A stretch of DNA of 64,000 nucleotides from Heterodontus francisci. Its lineage: Eukaryota. The position numbers were made by a program, and so were the translations under genes. Where the stretch lies: contig NC_090411.1 in the NCBI RefSeq assembly GCF_036365525.1, forward strand, positions 32,954,804-33,018,803, read 5' to 3'. A model generated the notes under the pieces. It was not told the DNA's origin, ran no database searches, and was given only the letters and a program-made list of their open reading frames with translations. Position 1 is the first letter of the stretch. Each line of letters opens with the position of its first letter. This document shows, in pieces, positions 3,531 through 60,796 of this stretch.

Positions 3531-3553
3531 TATTACTGAGATAACTCAATTAA

Positions 3554-3694
3554 GGATTTACATTAAAATGTTTCAAAATATCAGTACAGTAGCTTAAAAA
3601 TGGTTTCAAATAACATGTGGCAACAGCTCATACTATGCTACAGTATTCAACTTATCAAGAGGAGAAAGAGTCACTTACATAACCAAATGTTATT
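3554..3694 (-). repeat. Diverged duplicate of the proximal PRMT1 3' UTR (7888-8120)
   Basis: Shared colinear blocks ggatttacattaaaatgtttc, agtacag.agcttaa.aatggtt, gtggcaacag, ttcaact.atcaaga, aaccaaa. Confidence 0.85.
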
Positions 3695-4129: not shown

Positions 4130-4600
4130 TTCTTCCCTTCCCATCATCCAGAACTTCAAATTTACTTGTACATCTCCCAGATTAGTATATGGTATTCCCT
4201 GCTCGAGATGCAGTCTCCTCTACATTGAGACGACCAAACAGTGTTTTGCTAAACACATCAATCTATTCCATCCACAATCTTGGCCAAGCTTAATCCCTTC
4301 TCACTTTAATTCTCCATCCTACTCCTGAACTCTTGACCTCAGCCTCTTGCATTGAGCTTCATTGGAACAGCAACTCAAAGGTGATATGATGGGGCAAGGC
4401 AGAACTGTCATTTAATCACTTGCCTTCCACCCAATCACAGACCTTCCCTTGCATATTTTCTCCCCCTGCATCCCAATGTACTTGCTTATATACTGCTGGA
4501 TTCTAACCTATTCCAGTTCTGATGAAAGGTTAGTTGACCAGAAATGCAGTTTCTCTCGCTCTCTACAGATGCTGCCTGACCCAAATGTTTTCAGCATTTC
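4130..4600 (+). mobile_element. Penelope-like fragment (GIY-YIG)
   Basis: FTCTSPRLVYGIPCSRCSLLYIETTK followed by the ctacagatgctgcctgacc terminal motif. Confidence 0.7.
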
Positions 4601-4925
4601 CTCAAAGCAACGACAGCTGCCACTGCAAATCAAACAAAAAATAAAAATATGCTGGATAAGTCATAGCAAACAAGTTCACTTTTTGGGTATGGACTCTTCA
4701 AAAAGTTTTAGCAAAGGAGTCAGTCCTAAAATATTTTATCAGTTCTCCTGGCTGGCTGAGCATTGTCAGATCCTGCATTTATCTCAAACTTGAGGAGTGA
4801 TCTGCATTATCATAGCATTACAACAGGGGAAAATCATTGCTACTTGTCTCTAAAATGGTATCTCAAAGGTGACAAGTGGCAGCTGAAGAAAACAGACTTG
4901 CACAAGAGAAAGTTTAAGTCAAACT

Positions 4926-4931
4926 TTTATT
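4926..4931 (-). terminator. Candidate distal polyadenylation signal of PRMT1 (implies a 3' region of about 3.3 kb)
   Basis: AATAAA on the minus strand at the edge of the TE-free block that runs from the PRMT1 stop codon. Confidence 0.55.
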
Positions 4932-5968
4932 CTCAATGAATGTCACCATATATAAAAACAACAAAAGCATAATTTACTACACAGTCACAATGTTTGCCAG
5001 TCAGTACTTAGGGGTTTAGAAGACCAACATGGCAGTCTCAACATACACTAATACTCTTTAAAAAGATCAATTTTAGGTACAAGTCAGGGCTGTAACAAGG
5101 CTTAGAAATACAACTGTCCCTTTAAAACTAAAAGATGTGTGGGGGGAGAAAAAAAAAAGTAGTTTCTACTACTCCTTATCCCTAAAGAAAATCTTAAGGG
5201 TATCAGGACTGCAATACAGAGCAACTTGCTCAGATCCCTGGCTCGACTCTAACGTGCTAAAAACCATCAGATGACAGCTTCTAAACAGCAGTCGGGCGAC
5301 AGGCCGAACCGCGGGCACAACAGCATTCGCAGCAGCCCACCAGGCCTTGGCTCAGTAACAGCAGAGATGAAATTGCACCCAGGAAGCAAATGTCAAATAA
5401 TAGCTGCAGGCCAAAACATTCCCAATTAAAGATTCAATTAGGGTGGAATGTGCACCTTAAAAACTGAGGAAAAGCACATATAGGAAAAGTTAAAACATTC
5501 TGCCAAGAATTGCCATTCAGTCAAATCAAAGCTTGGTCACAGCCCTTGGATATTGTATTGTACATAACTGAAACACCATCTCCACATATCAAAAAAAATT
5601 GGTATAGCAAGGCATCACTCAGATTCCAAGGAGCATCTTGTTTCTAGTTTTACTTTCAGACCTGATGAACAGACCTAACCAAATAGGTTAGTGGGGAACC
5701 ATCCGATGCACCAACTGGTGTCGTACTGAGCCATATCTGTGCAGAACTCAGTGAAGATAGCAAGGGGTGTTACAATTAGCTACAGCAATTGATGAGGCTG
5801 GTAAGGGTAGAGAGAAAAAAGATCAGCCAGGGCGTGTGACCTTTGCTGGACAGCAGACAGGTGTGAAAACCAGAATTCAGTCAGAGATGACTGTCAGCTG
5901 TATCACTGGTCAATGCTCCCTAGCCAGACTCTCAAACCATATCACCAGGACGGTAAAACATGCTTGCG

Positions 5969-6029
5969 TCACACTTTAAGTGGATCGCCAGATGATGGAG
6001 CATCATAAATGACATCCACCACTAAAGGT
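5969..6029 (-). ncRNA. Candidate structured RNA or pre-miRNA-like hairpin, copy A
   Basis: Arms nearly identical to 6874-6938 and mutually complementary; loop differs. Confidence 0.45.
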
Positions 6030-6873
6030 GGTTCTCATGAAACTTGCAGTACAAGCCAATTGGAGGGAGGGAAATGAAACATTAGTGTTTTCAGCCAAAT
6101 ACAGTCACATGCACAAGACCTAGAAGTTAAAACCCCTTTTCTCAACCTGAATGGTGCGTCGCTAAGGAGATCATATTCTGCTCAAACAATAACCGTTTAA
6201 GATAGTGTTTACAAAGCAATGATTTCCATCGCACCAGGGCTGTAACGTATACCACAGCTACGCCAACCTGCAGCCTTACAAATGTCTAATTCCTCACCTG
6301 GTGCAAGCACTACTTGCAAATAGAAGGTGGTGTTGGGTTTAAAAAAGGGGGGGGGGGGGGGGGGACACACATGGAGAACAGAGTGAGAAGATAACAAAGG
6401 ATAGTTACAGCCCTCAGGTGACTATTTTACTCAAGATATGCAGCCACTTCCATTCAGCTTTTTAAAAACAAGCTCAATGGCAATCGCTTACCAGGCACAA
6501 TGGGTACCACTATCAGGTGATTTTTACACATAGTGTCTCTGCCCAGAGCAGATTCAAAATTCCCTAAGTTTCAGAACAACTCCCCCAATTTCTTACCGCA
6601 CAGCGCATTCCCAATCACCAAGTGAATTAGCAAGGTAGTTGTTCAACTGGACCGGCAAGGTTATAGAGCTTGGATGACTTGGCTCTGCCAAGTTTCACAG
6701 TAACATGGACTCTTGCAATGCGCAAAACAAGCAGGCCGTCACAAACCTTCGACACAGGTGCTCAGACCTGAAGACTCTACATACACAATGGAATTTACAT
6801 AGAGCCTTGTGCAGAGGATAAATGAGCAGCAGCTACGTAGAGGTGAAGCAACAAACTCAAGTCACACTTAACT

Positions 6874-6938
6874 TCACGCTTTAAGTGGATCGCCAGACGA
6901 TGGGTTATCGAGCATAAGTGACATCCACCACTAAAGGT
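6874..6938 (-). ncRNA. Candidate structured RNA or pre-miRNA-like hairpin, copy B
   Basis: Paralog of 5969-6029, with 53 of 56 arm positions identical. Confidence 0.45.
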
Positions 6939-8213
6939 TACTTGGCAATTGCTCGAGAAACAAAAAGTTAACACTGAACCTAGAGTTCTTTGCACCTGAA
7001 GGCGGGAGGGAGGACAGATATTTCAAAATGTTGCCAATTTAATGGATGGATAAATCACTGTAGAAAAATCATTTAATTTTGGGACAAAAAAGGCAAACTA
7101 AAGTCAAGTTGAACTACTTTGAAGGAGATGGAGAGAGTCAATCATGGTGAGACCAGGGACTCAAGGAACAGACATGACACCCCAGCCAAACAGCAACCTT
7201 CTTGCAATGAGTCGAATTTTTACAAAATACAAGACGTTCACAGAAGCTACAATTCAGTATTGCATGTACCAGATTTATCACAACCAGCTGTAGTTGGCCT
7301 AAACGCAGAAGCACAACTCAGATCCACTCTTGGCACTGGGAATTTTGAGCCTTGCGTTCCAGTGGAATCAGGAAATTTGTGCTCATGCAGTCTTACAGAA
7401 GCTACAGAATGGGTACAACTGAAATATTAGCTTCCGATGCAGCAAACAAGTTTGAAAATAAATCTCCAACCCATCTGCCAATCACCCCAAACAGTTTTCT
7501 CAACCCGACTGCATTTGTTTGAGGGGGAGGGGGTGGGGTTAATGGTTTAGATCTCACCGTTACTCTTGAACTCCACCTCCCATCTCTGAAGGTTTATATA
7601 GTAACAATAGTTTTAACACTCTTCCCCCACCACACATCGAAATGCAACTTCACTCAAGAAAACAAAGTGTTCGCCAGTCACGAACGAGGTCCCAAAAATA
7701 AATTTTTAAAAACCGCAAAAGTATGACGCACTTGAAGTTAGGTCGTAATTGCTCTGCTGACTGAAGGATGATTTGCCAAATTAGGGAACTAGCAGAAATC
7801 TAAAGTACCATTCTTAAAAAAAAAATCAAAACAAACTTGATCTGATCGCAGCTCCTCCCTGCCAAGGTAGATATAGCTCAGAATCAGGGATTTACATTAA
7901 AATGTTTCTGTTTCAAAATAGAACAAAAACATAATGAGTACAGCAGCTTAAGAATGGTTCCATAATAGCGCAAGTGGCAACAGTTATTCCTAGAATTACT
8001 CTAGATTTCTTTCCCCCTCCTCCCAGCTCATATGCCGTGTTAACGGACTTCAACTGATCAAGAAGAGGAGCAGTCAGTCGCACAACCAAATTACTTTTTT
8101 TTTTAAATCCTGAAAATGTTATCTTTATATAGGACACTACAGTGGTCGTGCTGGAGACTGAATGGAGCGGTGAGGACGGTGCGCGCAGCTGGAGGAGGGG
8201 GATGGAGGTCGAT

Positions 8214-24290
<16,077 letters not shown>

Positions 24291-36351: not shown

Positions 36352-39300
36352 CTGTCAGAGGATAAGAAACAAGTTTTTCAATAAATACAGTCAGTCCCAT
36401 ATCACTGATGGTCATATGCCCTTGTAAACACACATAGCTTTCAGGGGCAAGCTGGACTAGCATCCCAGATCAACATGGAGTGCTTACTCTCAATTTAGCT
36501 CGGACACCAGTTTGACTTCAGCTGATTACATTCTTACCTCTGAGTCAGTCCATATCAACTTGGCCACTGTTAATTGGGGTCTTACTTGAGCATTTATAAA
36601 GGAGACACTTACTGAGACTGGGAAAGCTTTGTGAGTGAGGAGCTAGATGTTTGTGATTCTTTCACTCTGTACAATAAATGTGAAACTGAGTAAAAAGATT
36701 ACAAACATGTAGCTCCTCACTCAAAAACCTTCCCCAGTTTCAGTGAGTGTCTTCTCATATGTGCTCAAATAAGACCCCAATTAGCACCCTCCACCTGCAT
36801 ATAATTAGACAACAGTCACATGATCTAGACTGACATGTCAATGCACTACTGAGGGAGTACTGCATTGTCAGGTGGCATCTTTTGTACGAGGCTCCATTTG
36901 TCTATGGAGGGGTGTGTAAAAACTCCTTTGGCGCTATTTGGAGGGTGATTCTCCAGGGCAGTGCCCTGGCCCAACTTTGCTCCCTCCCTCACCCACCTAC
37001 TCTCACCAAAAATAGACTAAGTAACTGGGCATTGATTACATTTGCTGTTTGTGGGAATGTGCCATGTGCAAATTGGCTGCCACATTTGGCTGAGTGACTG
37101 CACTTCAACTGTAATTCTTTTTGTTGTAAAGTTCTTTTGAGGTGACAGAAGGATGTGACGCGTCGATATATAAATGCACATTCTTTCTTCCTCTTTGCTT
37201 TGTGAATGGGATAGAGAATGTAGAGCAACAACTTGTATTTAATGTAGTAAAATATTCCAAGGGAATTCACAGGAACGTGATCAGATCAAAAATAACAGTG
37301 AGCCACATAAAGAGATATTAGGACTTGTGACTAAAGGTTCGGTCAAAGAGGCAGGTTTTGAGAATTGTCTTAAAAGGAGACAGAGAGGCGGAGAGGTTTC
37401 AGGAGGGAATTCCAGAGCTTGGGGCTGAGGCAGCTGAAGGCATGGCCGCCAATGGTAGAGTGATGGAAATTGGGAATGCTCAAGAGGCCAGAACTGCAGA
37501 GATGCCAACATTGTAGGGCTGGTAGAGATAAGAGAGAAGGAGGGGCGAGACCATGGAGAGATTTGAAAACAAGGGTGAGAATTTTAAAATTTAAAGAGAG
37601 AGAGAGAGATCAGCCCTCCCCTTCAGTGAGAGAGAGAGATCAGCCCTCCCCTTCAGTGAGAGAGAGAGATCAGCCCTCCCCTTCAGTGAGAGAGAGAGAT
37701 CAGCACTCCCCTTCAGTGAGAGAGAGAGATCAGCACTCCCCTTCAGTGAGAGAGAGAGATCAGCACTCCCCTTCAGTGAGAGAGAGAGATCAGCACTCCC
37801 CTTCAGTGAGAGAGAGAGATCAGCACTCCCCTTCAGTGAGAGAGAGAGATCAGCACTCCCCTTCAGTGAGAGAGAGAGATCAGCACTCCCCTTCAGTGAG
37901 AGAGAGAGATCAGCCCTCCCCTTCAGTGAGAGAGAGAGATCAGCCCTCCCCTTCAGTGAGAGAGAGAGATCAGCCCTCCCCTTCAGTGAGAGAGAGAGAT
38001 CAGCCCTCCCCTTCAGTGAGAGAGAGAGATCAGCCCTCCCCTTCAGTAAGGACAGTTCTGGACCTATCTGGAAAACAAATGGTGCACCAGCTAAACTATT
38101 CTTAACATTGGTGACATCTGACACAACAGGCCTTAGCCCTTCATCTAGATTTCTTATTGAAAGAAAAAGTCCCTCATTCCTCGTTCGGGGATGGTTTAGA
38201 ATCCTGTCATTGATGCTGTCATGTCTAATGCATCACACCATCTGCGTCGTCATAAAGACAGACATCAGAGTGCGTCAGAATAAAGTTCTAGAGATCTGGT
38301 TGGGTAAGACAAACTCTTGTTGAAATAGGAACTGGAGAACGTGGCTTTTGTCCCATGACTGGTGGATCCAGCCTGACAGAATTGGGCAGTTGTCTTCTCT
38401 TGCTGTGATACGGAGACTGAGCAGGAAGATCCCACATTCTTGAGCTTAGCTAATTAATCTCTAATCAGGCCTGAGGTGCAAAACACTACAATTGCCTTAT
38501 GTCCCGGGGGCATGTTTTGGAAAATTAGCTTGTAATCACTATCTGGTGATCTCTGGGGAAAGCCAAAAAGACAGTGACTGAAGACAAGCTAGAGCTCATT
38601 GTGATGCCTTCTGCAGTTGGACAGCCTACCCATACTCAGTCTATAGCTCAAGGTACTGGAAGCTACAGGTGCCTGTAGGTGTTATGGTCTTCAAGAAAGG
38701 AAGGGGGGGCTTTTTTTTTTCTTCTATGTCGGCTGTAGGACCCTTGGCCGTTCTGAAGCCAACTTTACCCTGGGAGAGAAAGGTCCTTCTTTTAATGCCA
38801 GTGATGTGCACTCACCCATCCGCCATTCTCCTGCAGCCAGGGGACAAACATATCCATGTACTGCATGCTGTAGCCCATCAGCTGCTGCACCGGGTGGCTG
38901 CTGATCCCGGCCACTCTCCGTGTTAGTTCCATTGTCAGTGCGATCTTTGTGAGCTCGGGGCTGGTGGTGGGACCCTTGTGTTGCTCTTCAACATTAGCCG
39001 TAAAGACTTTCACCAGCTGCGAAAAACTGTGGTAGGACATCCGGCTCATAGTACGCTGAAGCACAGGGTCGTTCTTTATCTACAAGACAGTAAGTCTAAC
39101 ATGAAGCACTTTTAAACTTGAAATACTATATACATATTTCTTTTAAATCTTATATCGGTACTCACTTCACATCTCCAAGTTTTTTTTAATTCTCTGGTTC
39201 TTGTCAATTTTTTGTGCCAAACTTTCTCTTTTATAATGTCTACAGCTAATGTAAACTAAATGGTCCAATTTTAAAAGGGGTGCAGGAAGGGAGACCTGGA

Positions 39301-42300
39301 AGTGGATGTACACAATTCTTTAAAAAGATAGCAGAATAAGTTTTGAAAGTTGTTTGGAAAAAAAAAATATACAGGAGCTGTGGCTTTATCGTTTGAGGCA
39401 TAGAGTTATAAAAGGCAAGGATGTTATGCTAAACCTTTATTAATCACGGGTTAGGCATCAGCTGAAGTATTGCATTCAATCCTGGGCACCACACTTTAGA
39501 ATGCAAGACAAGACTTTGGAGAGGGTGCAGAGGAGATTTACCAGAATGGTACCAGGGATGAGGGATTTCGGTTCTGTGGAGAGACTGGAGAAGCTGGGGT
39601 TATTCTCCTTAGAGCAGGGTATATATAATAGAGGTGTTCAAATAGTTTCTCCCTATTTAATCTGTTTGCACCAGCAGGAGGGTCAGTAATCAGAGGACAG
39701 GTTTAAGGTAATTGGATGAAGAGCCAGAGGAAAGATGAAAGCATTATTTTTACACAGTGAGTTGTTGTGATTTGGAATGCACTGCCCAAAAGGGCAGTGG
39801 AAGCAGATTCAATAGTAACTTTCAAAAGGGAATTTAAATAAACACTTGAAGGAAAAATTGCAAGGCTATGGGGAAATAGCAGGGAGAGCACCTAATTGGA
39901 CAGGTCTATCATAGGGCCGACACAGGCATGATGGGCCGAATGGCCTGTTTCTCGTTCTAATGGGAACTTCCCATGCAACTTGCCCTCAGAATTTAAGATA
40001 CCTTTCCATTGAGATTCATTCTCTAGGCTCCACTTGGGAAAGGTATGGGTTTGTGGTTCACAGTTTGGAATCTGGCCCAACAAGGGTCACTCCCTCAGGA
40101 GAGATGGGGAACGAAGTGAAATCTAACTTTTGTGTTTCTGAGGGGTCCAATCCAAGTTAAGAATGAATTTGAGCTCCGTGTATGGGGAAGGGAACTGCCC
40201 ACAGGGCCCATCTCAACATTACGGCTCCTTTACCTTGCTGGCAGGGGGTAATTTCCAGAGAGACCCTTCCATAGAGATCATTGGCAAAAGGTCTAGGTGG
40301 AAGATGAGGAGAAACGTTTTCACTCCGAGAGTTGTCAGGATCTGGAACTCTCGACCTGAAAAGGTGACAGAAGCTGATGTGAAATAATTTGAAAAGGGAG
40401 TTGGACAGGGACCTGAGGATGAGGAACTGGCAGGGTTACGAACAAAAAGCGGGAACTGTGGAATTTATTTATTTTTATTTATTTAGAGATACAGCACTGA
40501 AACAGGCCCTTCGGCCCACCGAGTCTGTGCCGACCAACAACCACCCCATTTATACTAATCCTACATTAACCCCATATTCTCTACCACATCCCCACCATTC
40601 TCCTACCACCTACCTACACTAGGGGCAATTTACAATGGCCAATTTACCTATCAACCTGCAAGTCTTTGGAGGTGGGAGGAAACCGGAGCACCCGGCGGAA
40701 ACCCACGCAGACACAGGGAGAACTTGCAAACTCCGCACAGACAGTACCCAGAATCGAACCCGGGTCGCTGGAGCTGAGAGGCTGCGGTGCTAACCACTGC
40801 GCCGCCCCCACTGCGCTGCCCAATTTAGCACAACTGCTCTTTCAAAGAGCCAGCACAGACATAATGGGCTGAATGGCCTCTTTCTGTGCTATAAGTCTCT
40901 ATGAGACCCTGCATGTGAGCACAGAATGGTGCATGTTTGTACACTGAAAGCATCCCCAAAGCCAATGCAAGCTGGAATAAGTCACTTCTATGGTCTGAAA
41001 CAAAAACAAAAATGCTGGAAATACTTAGCAGGTCTGGCAGCATCTGTGGAGAGAGAAGCAGAGTTAACGTTTCAGGTCGGTGACCTTTCATCAGAACTGG
41101 CAAAGGTTAGAAAAGAATTAGGTTTTAAGCAAGTGAAGGGGAGGGGGATGGGGGACAGAACAAAGGGGAAGGTATCCGATAGGGGAGAGGGTGATGAAAT
41201 AACAAAACTGTCCTGGGGCAAAGGCAAAGCGTGTGTTGTTAATGCTTGTGTGGTGAATGCCTGGCTACCCGACCTGAACCCGACTAGACCTGACTACGTG
41301 TGCCGGGGTCGGGTCAGGTCTATATTCTGAGTCCAGCATCGGGTCAGGTCGGGCTGGACAGTGCTGCCTTCGGGAACTCACGGGATTAGGCTCACCCATG
41401 ATTCCCTACAAATCCATCTGCAGGAATAGCCTGCTGGCGGAATGGATGAACAGGACCACAAATATTACCATTGGACAAGGTAGAGCACAATAACATGTTT
41501 GATATCATTAAATTTATTGCAATGTTCGGGTCGGGCACGGAAAAAAAAATGAAGAGACTCAGGCCCGGGTCAGGTTTCAATTTTAGATCCGAGCAGGCCT
41601 TTACAAAGCATTAGTCCAGAGATAGTGTTAACAGCAGAATAATGAGCAGCTACATTACTGCACAAAAAGTAGGCACATGGTTAAAAAAATAAAAAAAATT
41701 TTTTTTTTTTTTTAAAAGGGCCAGTCACGCTCTGAAGTTACTGAACTCAATGTTCAGTCCGCGAGGCTGTAGAGTGCCTGTTCAGGTGCTGCACCTTGAG
41801 CTTGCGTTGATGTTCACTGGAACACTGGAGCAGGCCAAAGACACAAATGTTGGCGTGAGAGCAGGGGGGAGTGCTGAAATGGCCAGCAACCGGAAGCTCG
41901 GGGTCATGCTTTCGGTCTGAGCAGAGGTGTTCAGCAAAGTGGTCACCCAAGCTATGTTTGGTCACCCCAGTGTAGAGGAGACCAGATTGTGAGCAGTGAA
42001 TACAGTATACTAAATTGAAAGAAATACAAGTAAATCGCTGCTTCACTTGGAAGGAGTGTTTGGGGCCTTGGATAGAGAGGAGAGAGGAGGTAAAAGGGTA
42101 GGTATTACACCTCCTGTGGTTGCATGGGAAGGTACCACAGCATGCTACAGCCTTGCAAACATTGAGTTCAATAACTTCAGAGCATGACCGGCCTTTTTTC
42201 AATATTTTATTTTTTAACCATGTGTCTGCTTTACATGCAGTCAGAGCTGCTCATTATTCCACTATTAACAGTCTCTCTGGATTAATGCTTTGTCTTTCAC

Positions 42301-45300
42301 CACAAGCATTAACACACGCTTTGCCTTTGTCCCAGGACAGCTTTGTTATTTAATCACCCTCTGCCCTATCAAACACCTTCCTCTTTGTTCTCTCCCCCAC
42401 TCCCCTCCTCTTCACTTCACTTGCTTAAAATCTAATTCTTTTCTAAACTTTGCCAGTTCTGATGAAGGGTCACTGACCTGAAACGTTAACTCTGCTTCTC
42501 TCTCCACAGACGCTGCCAGACCCGCCGAGTATTTCCAGCACTATGTTTTTATTTCAGATTTCCAGCATCCGCAGTATTTTGCTTTGATCACTCCCGTGGT
42601 CTGTTGGATTTGATCTGTGGATCGCATTCTCCACAGGCATTTAGTTCACCACGGCTGATCTCAGGCCACATTGCTGCCTCTCACCTTCTTGTCGATTCCA
42701 TCGCCTTGGTCTTGTAACAGCAGCACAATTTTCTCAATCATCTTCTCCTTGTCAGTCATCACATTCTGCGGGACATTATTGTTCACTAAAGAAATTCAAT
42801 GAGAACAGACGTCAGGTGGCAGAAACTGTACCGAGTGAATTTGCAGTTGCTCCTATTCATGCCAGCCAGTCCTCTGTGCCCACATCATACTAATCCCCTT
42901 TCTATTAGATGGGATATCCAGCTGACAAACCTCTCCACAGACTCTAGAATGGAGGGAAGGTCAGGCAGGACTGAAAGGTCGGGAGGGTTTTTTAAAAAAT
43001 GTTGCTTGCTGGAAAAATGAGCATTGTAAATTCCCCCACACCTTTTCGGGGAATGTTGAATAGGTACATTCAACCTGGTTCCCTTACTCCCTAAACATCC
43101 CCTTCCCCTCGAGTTTCAGACCCCGCCCTCCAGTTCCAGAGCCTCCTCCTTCCCTCTCAGGTTCCAGACAACACTTACCTGCTTCTGCTGCAGCAACTTC
43201 AACGCTCGGACTGACGCGGTCAATGCTGGCCTGAGCGCAGTATTGCTGTGCCAATTTATCCAACTTCTTTGCCACTTTTGAGTAGAACTCTTCATTTTCA
43301 TTTTTGGTTGACCCTAGAAACAATGGAAAAAAAAAGTCCACCAGAAGCTTGAGATAAACAGTACGGATGGAGAACTATAGGATGGCTGAGAGTGTGATGA
43401 GTGGCAACACAAGAGGGTTAGACATAATCATTTTATTTTATTAATTTATTTTTATTTAGAGATACAGCACTGAAACAGGCCCTTCAGCCCACCGAGTCTG
43501 TGCCGACCATCAACCACCCATTTATACTAATCCTACACTAATCCCATATTCCTACCACATCCCCACCTATCCCTATACTCCCCTACCACCTACCTATACT
43601 AGGGGCAATTTACAACGGCCAATTTACCTATCAACCTGCAAGTCTTTGGCTGTGGGAGGAAACCAGAGCACCTGGCGAAAACCCACACGGTCACAGGAAG
43701 AACTTGCAAACTCCACACAGGCAGTACCCAGAAATGAACCCAGGTTGCTGGAGCTGTGAGGCTGCGGTGCTAACCACTGCGCCACCATAGTGTCAGCCAT
43801 GGCTCAGTGGGTCACGCTCAAATCACTGAGCCAGAAGATTGTGGGTTCAAGTCCCACTCCAGATAATTGAGCACAAAATCCAGGATGACACTCCAGTGTA
43901 GAATCAAGGGAGGTGCTCTCTTTTGGACGAGACTTAAGCTGAGGCTCAATCTGCCCTCTGCTTTGAAAAAGAGCATATGAGTCCTCCCCAGTGTCCTGGC
44001 CAATATTTATCCCTCAATCAACATCATTGAAAAACAGATTAACTGGTCACTATCTCATTGCTGTTTATAGCAGCTTGCTGTAAGAAAATTGGCTGCCACA
44101 TTTCCTACATTACAACAGTGACTACACCTCAAAAGTACTTCACTGGTTAACATTAGTGAATGGCAGAAAAGACATAGAAGGGATGAATAGCCTCCTCCGG
44201 TTCCTATATGGCCCATACTTTGCAGTTAACCAATTGCTACAGAAACCAGAATGAAACCCATCTACTTTTGTCATTCTTACTGCAGCCCAACACTGGATCA
44301 CTTGTTTCACTAACTCCTCCAGTAGAACCCTTGGATGTATTACAAAGTATTTCCAACACTGAACAGGCCATCCAGTCCAACAGGCCTATGCCAGAGTTTA
44401 TGCTCCACATGAGCCTCCTCTTCATCAAACTCGATCAACATATCCTTCTCCCATCATGTGTTTATCGCGCTTCCTCTTAAATGCATCTACACTATTTGTC
44501 TCAACCACTCCCCATGATAGCGAGTTCCACATTCTCACCATTCTCTGGGTAAAGAAGTTTCTCCTGAATTCCCTATTGATTCTTTAGTGACTGTCTTTAT
44601 ACCCTAGTGGCGCTCTGGCCTACAAGTGGAAACATCTTCTCTACGTCTACCCTATCAAACCCCTTCATAAATCTAAAAACCTCTATCAGGTCATCCCTCA
44701 GCCTTCTCTCTTTAGAGAAAACAGCCCTAGCCTGATTAATCTTTCCTGATAAGTAGAAACTCTCAGTTCTGATACCTCTCTAGTAAATCTTTTTTGCACG
44801 TTCTCCAGTGCCTCAGTAATCCTTCTTATAAACTGAAGATCAGAATTGTGCATAGCACTCCAAGTGTAATCTAATCATGGTTTAATACAAGTTTAATGTA
44901 ACTGCTCTGCTTTTCATTTCTATCCCTCTAGAAAGGAGTTCCTTTCTTCAAAAGCACCCAGGAAGCTTCTAAACAGGGTTCCACCAGCTCCTGAAGGACA
45001 AATTGCTCACCTTTGTCAGTGCTTTTCATTTGGTCAGTAATTAGCGGGAGTGTGTTGGGCCGTGGTGAGGGAGGCTCAGGATCCTGGCCTTTTTCTGACG
45101 CTGGAGAAGAAGCTTCAATTTTCCCGTGTGACTGTTTCCTGAACAGATTAAAAAATCTCTGGCTCTTCTTGGAGTTATGCTTGCTGTTCTCCTCTGGGGT
45201 GTCTTCCTTTGCAATGGAGGTGACAGAATCTACCGAACCAACTGTGCAGGCTATTAAAGGGTTGGTATTCTTCTGTCTCCTCAAGGAATTGGACTTTCCA

Positions 45301-46842
45301 TCAACTTTACTGCTATTCTTCCCGGACCCATGATCTTCGAGTGGGTCTAGAGACTCCTTGGACTTTTTGTCAAAGGCATCGTTGCTCCTCTTCTTCCTCT
45401 GCCGTTTTATTAGCCTCTTGATAGTCGTTTTGAAGCCATGCTTTTTCTCCTCTGCCTGGGCGATTTCCTCATCTGTTGTATCCCAATCACTGTTGCCCTC
45501 AGTTCCTTCGGTTCGTTTCAGACTCCTCTTTTTCTCCTCCGCTTCTCGTTCCAAATTCCCTTTTTGGTTCGATTTTCTCCGAACATGCGATTTTACAGTG
45601 ATGTTGGAATCCTGGCCTTCGGTGGTCCTTTTAACAAGAAAATATTAAATAGACATGGTAATTAAAACATGCACCATGCTAATGACCAAGGGAAGTCGAT
45701 TTTTCAGATTGGGTAGCTCCCTGTAAATCCCTGCCTCCGAGGAAAGGCTAGGTAATCAATGTGAGTGAGATCGGAAGGAAATGACTGGGAGCAGCAAGAG
45801 GTAGAAGGTGGACTTTATAAGCAGCAAACCTTTGGATGAAATACTAAAATTGAGGCCCCGTCTGCCCTCTCAGGTGTAAAAGATATGCTATTTCAAAGAA
45901 GAGCAGGGGAGTTTTTTCCAGCGTCCTGGTCAATATGTATCCCTCAACCAACATCACTAAAAGAGAGCATCTGGTCAATATCACATTGCTGCTTGTGCGA
46001 TCTTGCTGTGCACCATTTGGCTGCAATGTTTCCTATAGCACAACAATGACTGCAAGTCAAAAGTGTGCCCTTAATTATTAAGTGCTTTAGCACATGCTGA
46101 GGTTCATAAAGGCTTCACATAAATGCAACGCTGTTCTATCAAATGATGTGTTGGGCTTCAAGAGCACCAGGGCACGGTGGAGGGGTGGGGTTGGGGGTTG
46201 TGGAGGTAGTGCATGGGTGCAGGGTTACCAGAAAGGGGGACGTCAGAGTCTGGGACCATTGGTGGGGCATGAGATGAGGGAGCAAGGAGGGTGGAGTTAA
46301 TGGGGCCTGAGGATGAGTAGGCTGGAGTTGGGATTTTGCATTATTTTGTTGGTTGGGGGGGTGGGGGGGGGGGGAAGGAAAATCAATTTGTGCATGTATA
46401 ACATGGCCTCATCCCATCCTATCTCTAGAAGGTCCTTCATCCCGCTCTCTTAACACTTCCACTGCAGCTCGTCCTCCGTTCTGTGCTCTTGTGGAAAACG
46501 TTGGCGCAGACAGGATGGGTAAAATGGGTAAAAACATTCTACAATCCATACATATTCGCCAATGTGCCAAGACATTCCTTCCCCTCATCCCCTCCCACCA
46601 CGAGCAAGACACAGAAAGTCATTGACACAAGAATGAGAGACTTACTTTGACAGGAACCTCTTAGTGTCGTGGTAGTAACGACCAACATGTCCAATGTTGG
46701 TGGCCTCGTCATTCTTCAGCATCTTCCGTAGGAAGGCCTCCATGACCAGCTTAGTTTCATTTTTTAGGACTATAAGGCTGTGCCTCTCCTCTTGGCACAG
46801 CTTACTCTCCGCCATCCCGGGGTCAAGCGAGTTAGTTCCCAT
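36304..46842 (-). CDS. BCL2L12: Bcl-2-like protein 12, complete CDS: join(46646-46842,45011-45627,43179-43313,42685-42785,38816-39079,36304-36351); 1362 nt, about 453 aa
   Basis: GT-AG introns with matching phases. Blocks LKNETKLVMEAFLRK, SPRPNTLP, FYSKVAKKLDKL, DKEKMIEKIVLLL, SPELTKIALTMELTRRVAG and BH2 WLQENGGW parallel human BCL2L12. Syntenic with PRMT1. Confidence 0.88.
36571..36783. repeat. Imperfect inverted repeat, about 97-bp arms and 19-nt spacer
   Basis: taattggggtctta...cactc versus gagtaaaaag...taagaccccaatta; roughly 85% complementary by eye. Confidence 0.9.
36830..37190 (+). mobile_element. Deu-domain/SacSINE1-like SINE, decayed
   Basis: tactgagggagtactgca...aattggctgcc...tatataaatgca. 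Confidence 0.7.
37225..37590 (-). mobile_element. L2-like LINE 3' fragment (similar fragments at about 15880-16090, 22520-22940, 30860-31125, 52190-52350)
   Basis: aacaacttgtattt...agggaattccagagctt pattern recurring across the window. Confidence 0.65.
37598..38047. repeat. Minisatellite, 15 x 30 bp (gagagagagagatcagc[c/a]ctccccttcagt)
   Basis: Counted directly; variant order 3 C-type, 7 A-type, 5 C-type. Confidence 0.98.
38816..39079 (-). CDS. BCL2L12: BCL2L12 coding exon 5 (ends in BH2 GGW)
   Basis: IKNDPVLQRTMSRMSYHSFSQLVKVF...FVPWLQENGGW|gtgagt; the intron after GGW is typical of the Bcl-2 family. Confidence 0.93.
39255..39955 (+). mobile_element. Degenerate CR1 3' fragment
   Basis: LERVQRRFTRMVPG...LEKLGLFSLE. 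Confidence 0.85.
40463..40815 (-). mobile_element. tRNA-derived SINE (V-SINE/HE1-like)
   Basis: Full head-core-tail with (TAAA)n tail; high identity to 43430-43787 and 60437-60796. Confidence 0.88.
40996..42585. mobile_element. Penelope-like element remnant with inverted terminal repeats and GIY-YIG fragment; interrupted at about 41258-41602 by a GC-rich non-autonomous element
   Basis: 40996-41250 is the reverse complement of about 42300-42550. The minus-strand ORF FTCISFNLVYCIHCSQSGLLYTGVTK...FAEHL is a GIY-YIG endonuclease pattern. Confidence 0.82.
42685..42785 (-). CDS. BCL2L12: BCL2L12 coding exon 4 (BH3-like)
   Basis: VNNNVPQNVMTDKEKMIEKIVLLLQDQGDGIDKK, with an LxxxGDxI BH3 pattern; |gtgaga. 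Confidence 0.9.
43179..43313 (-). CDS. BCL2L12: BCL2L12 coding exon 3
   Basis: GSTKNENEEFYSKVAKKLDKLAQQYCAQASIDRVSPSVEVAAAEA; |gtaagt. Confidence 0.9.
43430..43787 (-). mobile_element. tRNA-derived SINE (V-SINE/HE1-like)
   Basis: Same family as 40463-40815. Confidence 0.88.
43794..44146 (+). mobile_element. Deu-domain/SacSINE1-like SINE
   Basis: A box tggctcagtgg, B box ggttcaagtcc, conserved core. Confidence 0.8.
44350..44930 (-). mobile_element. Degenerate CR1 3' fragment
   Basis: Reverse-complement match to CR1 3' ends elsewhere in the window (gagttccacattctcacca). Confidence 0.8.
45011..45627 (-). CDS. BCL2L12: BCL2L12 coding exon 2 (long charged low-complexity region)
   Basis: 617-nt open exon, phase 2 to phase 1, ending ...PPSPRPNTLPLITDQMKSTDK|gtgagc. 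Confidence 0.85.
45851..46127 (+). mobile_element. Deu-domain/SacSINE1-like SINE fragment
   Basis: gaggccccgtctgccctctcagg core. Confidence 0.75.
46646..46842 (-). CDS. BCL2L12: BCL2L12 first coding exon (alternative ATG at 46815)
   Basis: MGTNSLDPGMAESKLCQEERHSLIVLKNETKLVMEAFLRKML...; an acceptor just upstream implies a non-coding exon further 5'; |gtaagt donor. Confidence 0.85.
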
Positions 46843-51897: not shown

Positions 51898-53377
51898 AGA
51901 AGTGGTTGAGATAAATAGCATCGATGCATTTAAGAGGAAGCTGGATAAACACGAGAGAGAAAGGAATAGAAGGATATGCGACGTTGTAGGGTGGGAGGAG
52001 GCTCGTGTGAAGCATAAACACAGGCATAAACCAGCTGGTCTGAATGGCCTGTTTCTGTGCTGCAAGCTCTAGATAATTCCAAATGATCTTTCCCTAGCTG
52101 GCATTGATTCAGGGAGGAATTTTGGCTGGGACCCTCATCCTCTTTGATTAGTGCCTGCAATATTCTACATCCAAACCAAACTACAACCAAACAACATTTA
52201 TATAACACCTTTAATGCATAAAAGTATCCCAGATGCTTAGAAGTGAATGGGAATTTAATGGACTCCAATTCAACTAAGGGCTGATAAGAAGGATGCCACA
52301 AAATTTTGTCAGAGGTGGGTTTCAAGGTGGACGTTAAAGGAGGATAAGGAGCTACCGGATAAGGCAGACAGGGCCACTGCTGAACGTCTGACCTGTGGGT
52401 CGACACTTCTGATAATGCAGCACTCCCTCAGTCAGCCGAAGTGACCTGTCCTAATCCTGGAGCAGGGATTGAACCCATAACCTCGTGTCTCAGAGTATCT
52501 GGATGAGCCAAGCTGACAAGTGGAGGCGGTGGCGCAGTGGTAGTGTCACTGGACTAGCAACCCAGAGCTCCAGGCTGATGGTCTGGGGACATGGGTTCGA
52601 ATCCCACCACAGCAGATGGTGAAATTTGAATTCAATTAAGAAATCTAGAATTAAAAGCTAGTCGAGGAGTGACCATGAAACCATTGTCGATTGTTGTAAA
52701 AATCCATCTGGTTCACTAATGCCCTTTAGGGAAGGAAATCTGCCATCCTTTCCTGGTCTGGCCTACATGTGACCCCAGACCCACAGCAATGTGGTTGACT
52801 CTTAAATGCCCTCCGAGATAGCCAAGCAAGCCACTCCATTGCATCAAACTGATGCGAAGTCCAAGAAAAGGAATGAAACCGGACAGACACCTGGCATCAA
52901 CCTAGGCACTGGAAACGTCAACAGCAAACAGCAACGGTACAAAATGTACTCTGAGTGGCGGACTTCAATGTCTATCATCAAGAGTGGCTTGGTAGTATCT
53001 CTACTGACCAAGCCCTCAAGGACATAGCTGCTAGACTGAGTCTGCGGCAGGTGGTGAAGGAACCAACAAGAGGGAAAAACCTACTTGACCTCGTCCTCAA
53101 TCTACCTGTCACAGATGCATCTGTCCATGACAGTATTGGTAGGATGGCCACCTCACAGACCTTGTGGAGACAAAGTCCATTCTTCACACTGAGGGTACCC
53201 ACCATCGTGTTGTGTGGCACTACCACTATGCTAAATGGGATCGATTTTGAACAGATCTAGCAACTCAAAACTGGGCATCCATGAGGTGCTGTGAGCTATC
53301 AGCAGCGGCAGCAGAATTGTATTCAACCACAATCTATAACCTCACGGCCTGCATATCCTCCACTCTACCATGAGCAT

Positions 53378-60436: not shown

Positions 60437-60796
60437 GCTTTTTTTTTTAGATTAGAGATACAGCACTGAAACAGGCCCTTTGGCCCACCGAGTCTGTGCC
60501 GAACATCAACCACCCATTTATACTAATCCTACACTAATCCCATATTCCTACCAAACATCCCCACCTGTCCCTATATTTCCCTACCACCTACCTATACTAG
60601 TGACAATTTATAATGGCCAATTTACCTACCAACCTGCAAGTATTTTGGCTTGTGGGAGGAAACCGGAGCACCCGGAGAAAACCCACGCAGACACAGGGAG
60701 AACTTGCAAACTCCACACAGGCAGTACCCGGAATCGAACCCGGGTCCCTGGAGCTGTGAGGCTGCGGTGCTAACCACTGCGCCACTGTGCCGCCCT
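60437..60796 (-). mobile_element. tRNA-derived SINE (V-SINE/HE1-like)
   Basis: Same family; inserted into the older CR1. Confidence 0.88.

Follow-up and report, generated by a model that had tools for sequence, protein, structure and literature searches.

The window, by which is meant the whole 64,000-nucleotide stretch of Heterodontus francisci DNA that was analysed, carries on its minus strand the gene for PRMT1, a SAM-dependent enzyme (Table 1). A search of two of its exons against the Protein Data Bank (PDB) ranks PRMT1 above PRMT8, by a modest margin. For comparison, contigs were used that had been assembled from four of eleven runs of two organisms, denoted A and B. The joint between the two exons (8297-9022) shows canonical intron ends in four of the four runs compared, and in organism B exon 9022-9145 is linked to 8297-6913 within one contig. 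Since this joint is present, the runs appear to contain spliced molecules, their RNA nature itself being a guess. An organism A contig spans 5514 to 8297, across both copies of the repeated block described below, with 0 substitutions, and none of the splice joints listed (15 of 17) lies inside the UTR. The sole AAUAAA of the UTR is found at 4931-4926 and probably marks the poly(A) site; the contig cover of the UTR ends at 4951, 5053, 5110 and 5173 in the four runs. Together, the splice joint, the unspliced contig cover and the single AAUAAA place the two copies within a 3′ UTR of ~3.3 kb and not in an intron, in agreement with a preceding sequence-only reading that had located both downstream of the stop codon on the PRMT1 sense strand. 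The human PRMT1 3′ UTR is far shorter. Two AUUAAA motifs near 7043-7077 could serve a shorter isoform from which both hairpins would be absent. Upstream of PRMT1 and on the same strand, exons of a Bcl-2-family-like gene are observed at 38792-45648, with a weak Pfam match (E 0.0085) below the curated cut-off. This gene is probably BCL2L12, which would fit the BCL2L12-PRMT1 order in human. The repeat content of the window suggests a cartilaginous fish.

Table 1. Features of the PRMT1 3′ region and local duplications, in window coordinates.
Feature	Position	Strand	Remarks
PRMT1 long 3′ UTR (~3.3 kb)	4926..8213	-	contig cover without a listed splice joint
Last PRMT1 exon, coding part	8214..8297	-	from translation; TAG stop at 8216-8214
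Penultimate PRMT1 exon	9022..9145	-	spliced to 8297 in 4/4 runs
Distal copy of duplicated block	5969..6029	-	25-bp bulged hairpin; probable donor
Proximal copy of duplicated block	6874..6938	-	lower stems as in distal copy, loop 7 nt longer, upper stem damaged; probable acceptor
Exact 9-nt repeat of 5968-5976	6861..6869	.	directly adjoins proximal copy
Pyrimidine (CCCU) tract	6062..6071	-	full decamer, 32 nt upstream of distal copy on mRNA
Nine-letter version of pyrimidine tract	7005..7013	-	66 nt upstream of proximal copy
Direct pair in PRMT1 intron	17486-17562 vs 18364-18440		77 nt, 76/77 identical, 878 nt apart
Older direct pair	3538-3626 vs ~7870-7983		69% over 114 columns; PRMT1 3′ UTR vs region beyond the gene's end

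The 3′ UTR contains two copies of a block of 61-65 nt, in the same orientation and with a spacing of 905 nt. The arms of the two copies match at 28 of 30 positions (5969-5998 versus 6874-6903) and at 25 of 26 positions (6004-6029 versus 6913-6938), exactly as first reported, and the window has nothing comparable. The next best ungapped arm matches in the 64 kb reach only 20/30 and 18/26, a third copy of the block is absent within the window, and the two-arm pattern occurs twice in the window versus 0 times in 100 shuffles. Self-BLAST of the UTR recovers the pair with an E-value of 6e-13. In public collections the two-arm pattern was found at eight metagenome and two viral loci, all of which were rejected as chance matches; the metagenome loci have a GC content of 53-69% and only the pattern in common, and the contigs of the viral loci equal L004 and L005 in length.

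The middle parts of the copies had been regarded as unrelated; instead, they differ by one 7-nt indel in the loop and a 3-nt loss in the proximal copy of this genome. The flanks had likewise been called unrelated, which is true for most alignments, 6 of 7 of which score no better than shuffles, but not for the stretch 6861-6869, an exact copy of 5968-5976. This 9-nt repeat is possibly templated filler from the copying event, or the product of later slippage. For the 800-nt downstream flank pair a z of 1.7 is obtained, with 2 of 60 shuffles reaching its score. The density of shared 6-mers at an offset of 905 (z 0.45) gives no residue of a longer tandem duplication, and an old tandem duplication of ~905 nt was rejected, the flanks being without residual similarity. 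A ccctccctcc tract said to accompany both copies is complete only near the distal one, the tract near the proximal copy matching nine letters. Both tracts lie outside the duplicated block, and similar tracts are present elsewhere in the UTR.

On the minus strand, the distal copy (5969-6032) folds with an energy of -24.0 kcal/mol (z -4.0; 0 of 200 shuffles as good) into a bulged hairpin with, counted over this segment, 25 bp in three helices (8+11+6 bp) and a 3-nt loop. The proximal copy forms 22 bp on this strand, at -16.2 kcal/mol (z -1.2; 26 of 200 shuffles as good). Folding of the plus strand is less favourable for both copies (-18.3 and -13.1 kcal/mol, respectively), which bears out the earlier proposal that the arms pair and that G-U pairs favour the PRMT1 strand. 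When the three lost nucleotides are re-inserted into the proximal copy, the model restores the six-pair upper helix and the energy improves from -16.2 to -20.2 kcal/mol. Three substitutions separate the copies, two at unpaired positions and one changing a U-A to a U-G pair, and none of them is compensatory. The pairing probability of the distal core helix is 0.43-0.88 in wider context and 0.14 under a 150-nt span limit; that of the proximal core helix falls from 0.38-0.67 with flanks of 10-40 nt to 0.0-0.09 with flanks of 80-150 nt. Among 1617 UTR windows of 64 nt the distal copy is the third most stable after merging of overlaps. Of 1500 random unique windows of 61 nt, 19 give an end-to-end hairpin of this type at -20 kcal/mol or better, and 89 at -15 kcal/mol.

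Two single-copy stretches of the UTR also fold well on the mRNA strand, i.e. 5240-5355 (z -4.3 for 5240-5303), which sits in the stretch differing most between organisms A and B, and 6424-6499 (z -3.4). The quietest part of the UTR between these organisms is 5450-5787, with at least one substitution and one indel in 338 nt versus ~2-3% elsewhere, a segment chosen post hoc and for which the contig may hold up to two further substitutions beyond those listed. Judged by sequence comparison, this segment would be more promising than the hairpins as a constrained element.

Searches for known RNA families give nothing on the hairpins. Rfam yields no match at the gathering score in the window, and under relaxed thresholds three matches in 4800-8300 (E 8.7-9.1), none of them on the hairpins. 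Comparison by eye with the consensus of the SECIS element, the C/D box, the K-turn, the IRE and the hammerhead shows that none fits; PRMT1 ends in TAG. ARAGORN reports two tRNA-like hits, both far from the hairpins (52525-52615 and 60719-60791) and, lying in repeat-rich DNA, probably the heads of tRNA-derived SINEs. In the accessible main text of the RLMHelix preprint on conserved human RNA structures (10.64898/2026.10.24.761493) PRMT is not mentioned, and in the accessible part of the literature searched no description of a PRMT1 UTR hairpin was found.

Organism B, represented by runs X5 and X8 from two studies, is the one relative compared, at ~2% divergence. Across the UTR 65 of 3240 positions (2.0%) differ between it and the window, versus 24 of 735 (3.3%) in flank and intron pieces (Fisher p 0.05). 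The details given here are taken from the 40 of 135 substitutions and 12 of 40 indels listed; all gap letters (25 and 23) are accounted for in the two B contigs concerned. In both runs 16 nt from 5972 have no counterpart in organism B, so that in the distal copy both lower helices are deprived of their 3′ strand. In the model, the shortened copy can still fold an upper hairpin in a shifted register. Organism B also has three extra letters after 6912 that are missing from the proximal copy of this genome. The letters are present in the distal copy as well, and a loss in this genome is accordingly the most parsimonious account. At 5993, in the distal copy, organism B carries the letter of the proximal copy. 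The contigs of organism B are interrupted at 6000/6027 and 6913/6936; if words of 31 letters were used in the assembly, its two copies would share a stretch of 32 identical nt. From these sequences it would appear that no more than about one substitution distinguished the ancestral copies in their arms, in addition to one 7-nt indel in the loop.

The rates of change since the species split were compared with those of the UTR as a whole. The hairpins have accumulated about two known substitutions in 126 nt, where the UTR rate of 65/3240 predicts 2.5, and two stem-damaging indels, where UTR rates predict 0.5-0.6. For the B contig with the proximal copy 13 of 18 substitutions are listed, and the other five could fall in the proximal copy. 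As the pace of change in the hairpins is not below that of the UTR, the likeness of the copies is best explained by youth or by recent gene conversion; since the copies were nearly identical before the species split, the duplication would be young. The identity of the arms had been taken as a sign of conservation. The identity itself is real, but the 16-nt loss in the distal 3′ arm and the background substitution rate in the one relative speak against its being conservation. Lack of conservation at orthologous loci, which the initial description had named as counter-evidence, is thereby partly seen in this single relative.

With moderate confidence, we regard the pair as a young and neutral proximal duplication that arose by DNA repair. 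A piece of ~60-70 nt of the PRMT1 3′ UTR, self-complementary by chance, would have been duplicated a single time, ~0.9 kb from its source, not long before this species and organism B diverged. In the repair of a double-strand break, the broken end would invade nearby DNA, copy a short tract and rejoin, generating a 'doublet', with the distal copy as the putative donor and the proximal copy as the putative acceptor. Both copies would since have changed as fast as the UTR around them, and the recent origin of the copy, and not selection, would account for the likeness of the arms. The low pairing probability of the proximal core helix in wide context and the lack of compensatory substitutions agree with this reading. 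Doublets are reportedly described by Thomas et al., as cited in Pace et al.

According to Pace et al. (2009, PMC2671141), repair-mediated duplications are at least 50 bp long (50-619 bp), lie less than 5 kb apart, show filler of 1-68 nt, occur also in zebrafish, include UTR sequence among the copied material, and are defined as events by an empty site. The block described here fits these limits with its 61-65 nt and its spacing of 905 nt. It resembles the published cases in being present in two copies only, in the same orientation, without target-site duplication and without the poly(A/T) tail that retrotransposition leaves, none being observed in the flanks of either copy. The 9-nt repeat beside the proximal copy might be filler at one junction, or else later slippage. 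Unlike the published cases, the block is an end-to-end hairpin, and it is shorter than their reported mean (162 bp). The case for a neutral duplication rests on small counts and one relative at ~2% divergence, in which both sites are occupied.

Short local copying is common at this locus, as follows from the 77-nt intron pair and the older 69% pair (Table 1), and is in line with the duplications of PMC2671141. Self-comparison of the window gives 131 hits, with four two-copy pairs at ~5 kb or less, the PRMT1 hairpin pair among them. The 77-nt intron pair forms no strong hairpin (minimum free energy only -12 to -14 kcal/mol). Its member at 17486-17562 is part of a longer dispersed repeat, and the pair looks like a textbook repair-mediated duplication. 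Two inverted two-copy pairs are also seen, at 41603-41772/42145-42293 (75%) and 44515-44831/49799-50124 (77%), with sizes of 170 and 335 nt; these are probably dispersed repeats.

Several observations do not follow readily from a neutral duplication. The block extends just to the hairpin base at both ends, the length difference of 7 nt between the copies is confined to the loop, the balance of G-U pairs is in favour of the mRNA strand, and the damage is reciprocal between the species, each of which seems, from the sequences at hand, to keep one full copy. The shortened distal copy of organism B can still fold an upper hairpin, and the distal helix of this genome stays likely in wider context, although not under the 150-nt span limit. 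The main, though less likely, alternative is that a single functional 3′ UTR hairpin was duplicated recently and that each lineage keeps a different copy. The bulged stem would be read by a double-stranded-RNA-binding or structure-binding protein that tunes the stability or translation of the PRMT1 mRNA; one copy would be enough, the distal one being retained here and the proximal one in organism B. In favour of such a role, the block is a hairpin end to end, for which the base rate is 19/1500, the indel in the loop is tolerated, all three inter-copy substitutions are compatible with pairing, and the mRNA strand folds better, with the distal copy surpassing all 200 shuffles and ranking third in stability among the merged UTR windows. 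The reciprocal damage between the species points in the same direction. However, neither covariation nor excess conservation is found, other UTR windows fold equally well or better (5240-5303), no motif points to a binding partner, and the pair was picked for being a hairpin. In addition, the intactness of the B proximal copy is partly assumed, as five of the 18 substitutions of its contig could lie there. We consider it possible, if rather unlikely, that the cartilaginous-fish PRMT1 mRNA carries an undescribed regulatory hairpin read through its stem, which duplication made redundant and of which sister species kept opposite copies.

It is improbable that the block descends from a transposon or MITE of low copy number, with imperfect inverted repeats at its termini, that either inserted twice or hopped locally. 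Palindromic MITEs and low-copy ancient hairpin repeats such as Made1 and Eulor form short, self-complementary dispersed copies, and the block resembles them in its shortness and self-complementarity; both of its copies end at the same points, between flanks that are unrelated. Unlike these repeats, it has no further copies in the 64-kb window or in the contigs compared, and no target-site duplication longer than 2 nt, the 2-nt candidates differing between the copies. Moreover, mismatches and bulges are the same in both copies. A high copy number, which had been named as evidence for a MITE, is not observed in the sequences covered: there are two copies in 64 kb, and in runs X1 and X2 the bins containing the hairpins stay at single-contig depth at 80% likeness, in contigs that are transcriptome-like and not genomic. 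In the same runs the repeat-like stretches 4374-4721 and 8376-8723 draw many contigs.

Very improbable is an ancient, conserved pair of hairpins of the MAT2A type, kept alike by selection or gene conversion and perhaps coupling the level of PRMT1 to the supply of methyl donor. The dependence of PRMT1 on SAM would suit it, as would flanks without trace of a longer duplication, which are expected if only the hairpins outlived an old one. It would, however, require two stem-damaging indels and two substitutions within ~2% divergence, versus about one substitution in all earlier time. According to PMC7927073, the MAT2A 3′ UTR hairpins hp1-hp6 are read by METTL16; they have a loop nonamer that is conserved among vertebrates, whereas their stems are interchangeable. 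Like them, the PRMT1 hairpins are repeated in the 3′ UTR of a SAM-linked gene; in contrast to them, here the loop varies and the stems decay between close relatives. The METTL16 nonamer UACAGAGAA and its hp5 variant have no match in the PRMT1 UTR. The analogy with MAT2A drawn in the initial description fails because those hairpins conserve the loop nonamer that is absent here.

That the copies are precursors of a pair of microRNAs or other small RNAs in the 3′ UTR, as had also been suggested, is hardly credible: like a canonical pri-miRNA the block is a bulged hairpin of ~60 nt with similar arms and a variable loop, but PMC11100773 gives a stem of ~35 ± 1 bp and an apical loop of at least 10 nt, so that the stems of 25 and 22 bp are ~10 bp too short and the distal loop of 3 nt too small (10 nt in the model of the organism B proximal copy), forcing of the core does not yield a contiguous basal stem common to the copies, organism B has lost one arm, Rfam has no match, and two sets of shark small-RNA tables contain neither arm motif. 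These tables, which come from other or unknown shark species, comprise one supplementary file of PMC3789328, in which sequences are present, and seven files of PMC6048248 (shark sheet of 205 rows), with 0 matches in either set.

The sequence-only reading thus remains valid in describing two paralogous copies on the PRMT1 sense strand, within the 3′ UTR, the distal one a good hairpin; its arm conservation, small-RNA precursors and MAT2A analogy are not supported, and the pair may be a cis element restricted to its lineage. The pair is real and transcribed within the PRMT1 3′ UTR. Most likely, a stretch able to form a hairpin was duplicated recently by a repair-type event, and the result is now decaying in the two species compared. 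If the duplication is neutral, it is one more short local duplication, of little weight, and a warning that a pattern of 'conserved arms, divergent loop' in paralogues may reflect youth and not selection. Should the hairpin instead be functional, it would be an apparently undescribed element of post-transcriptional PRMT1 control and a clear example from nature of duplicated RNA structures decaying reciprocally: a cis-regulatory RNA element in reciprocal loss, possibly serving feedback control of the main arginine methyltransferase.
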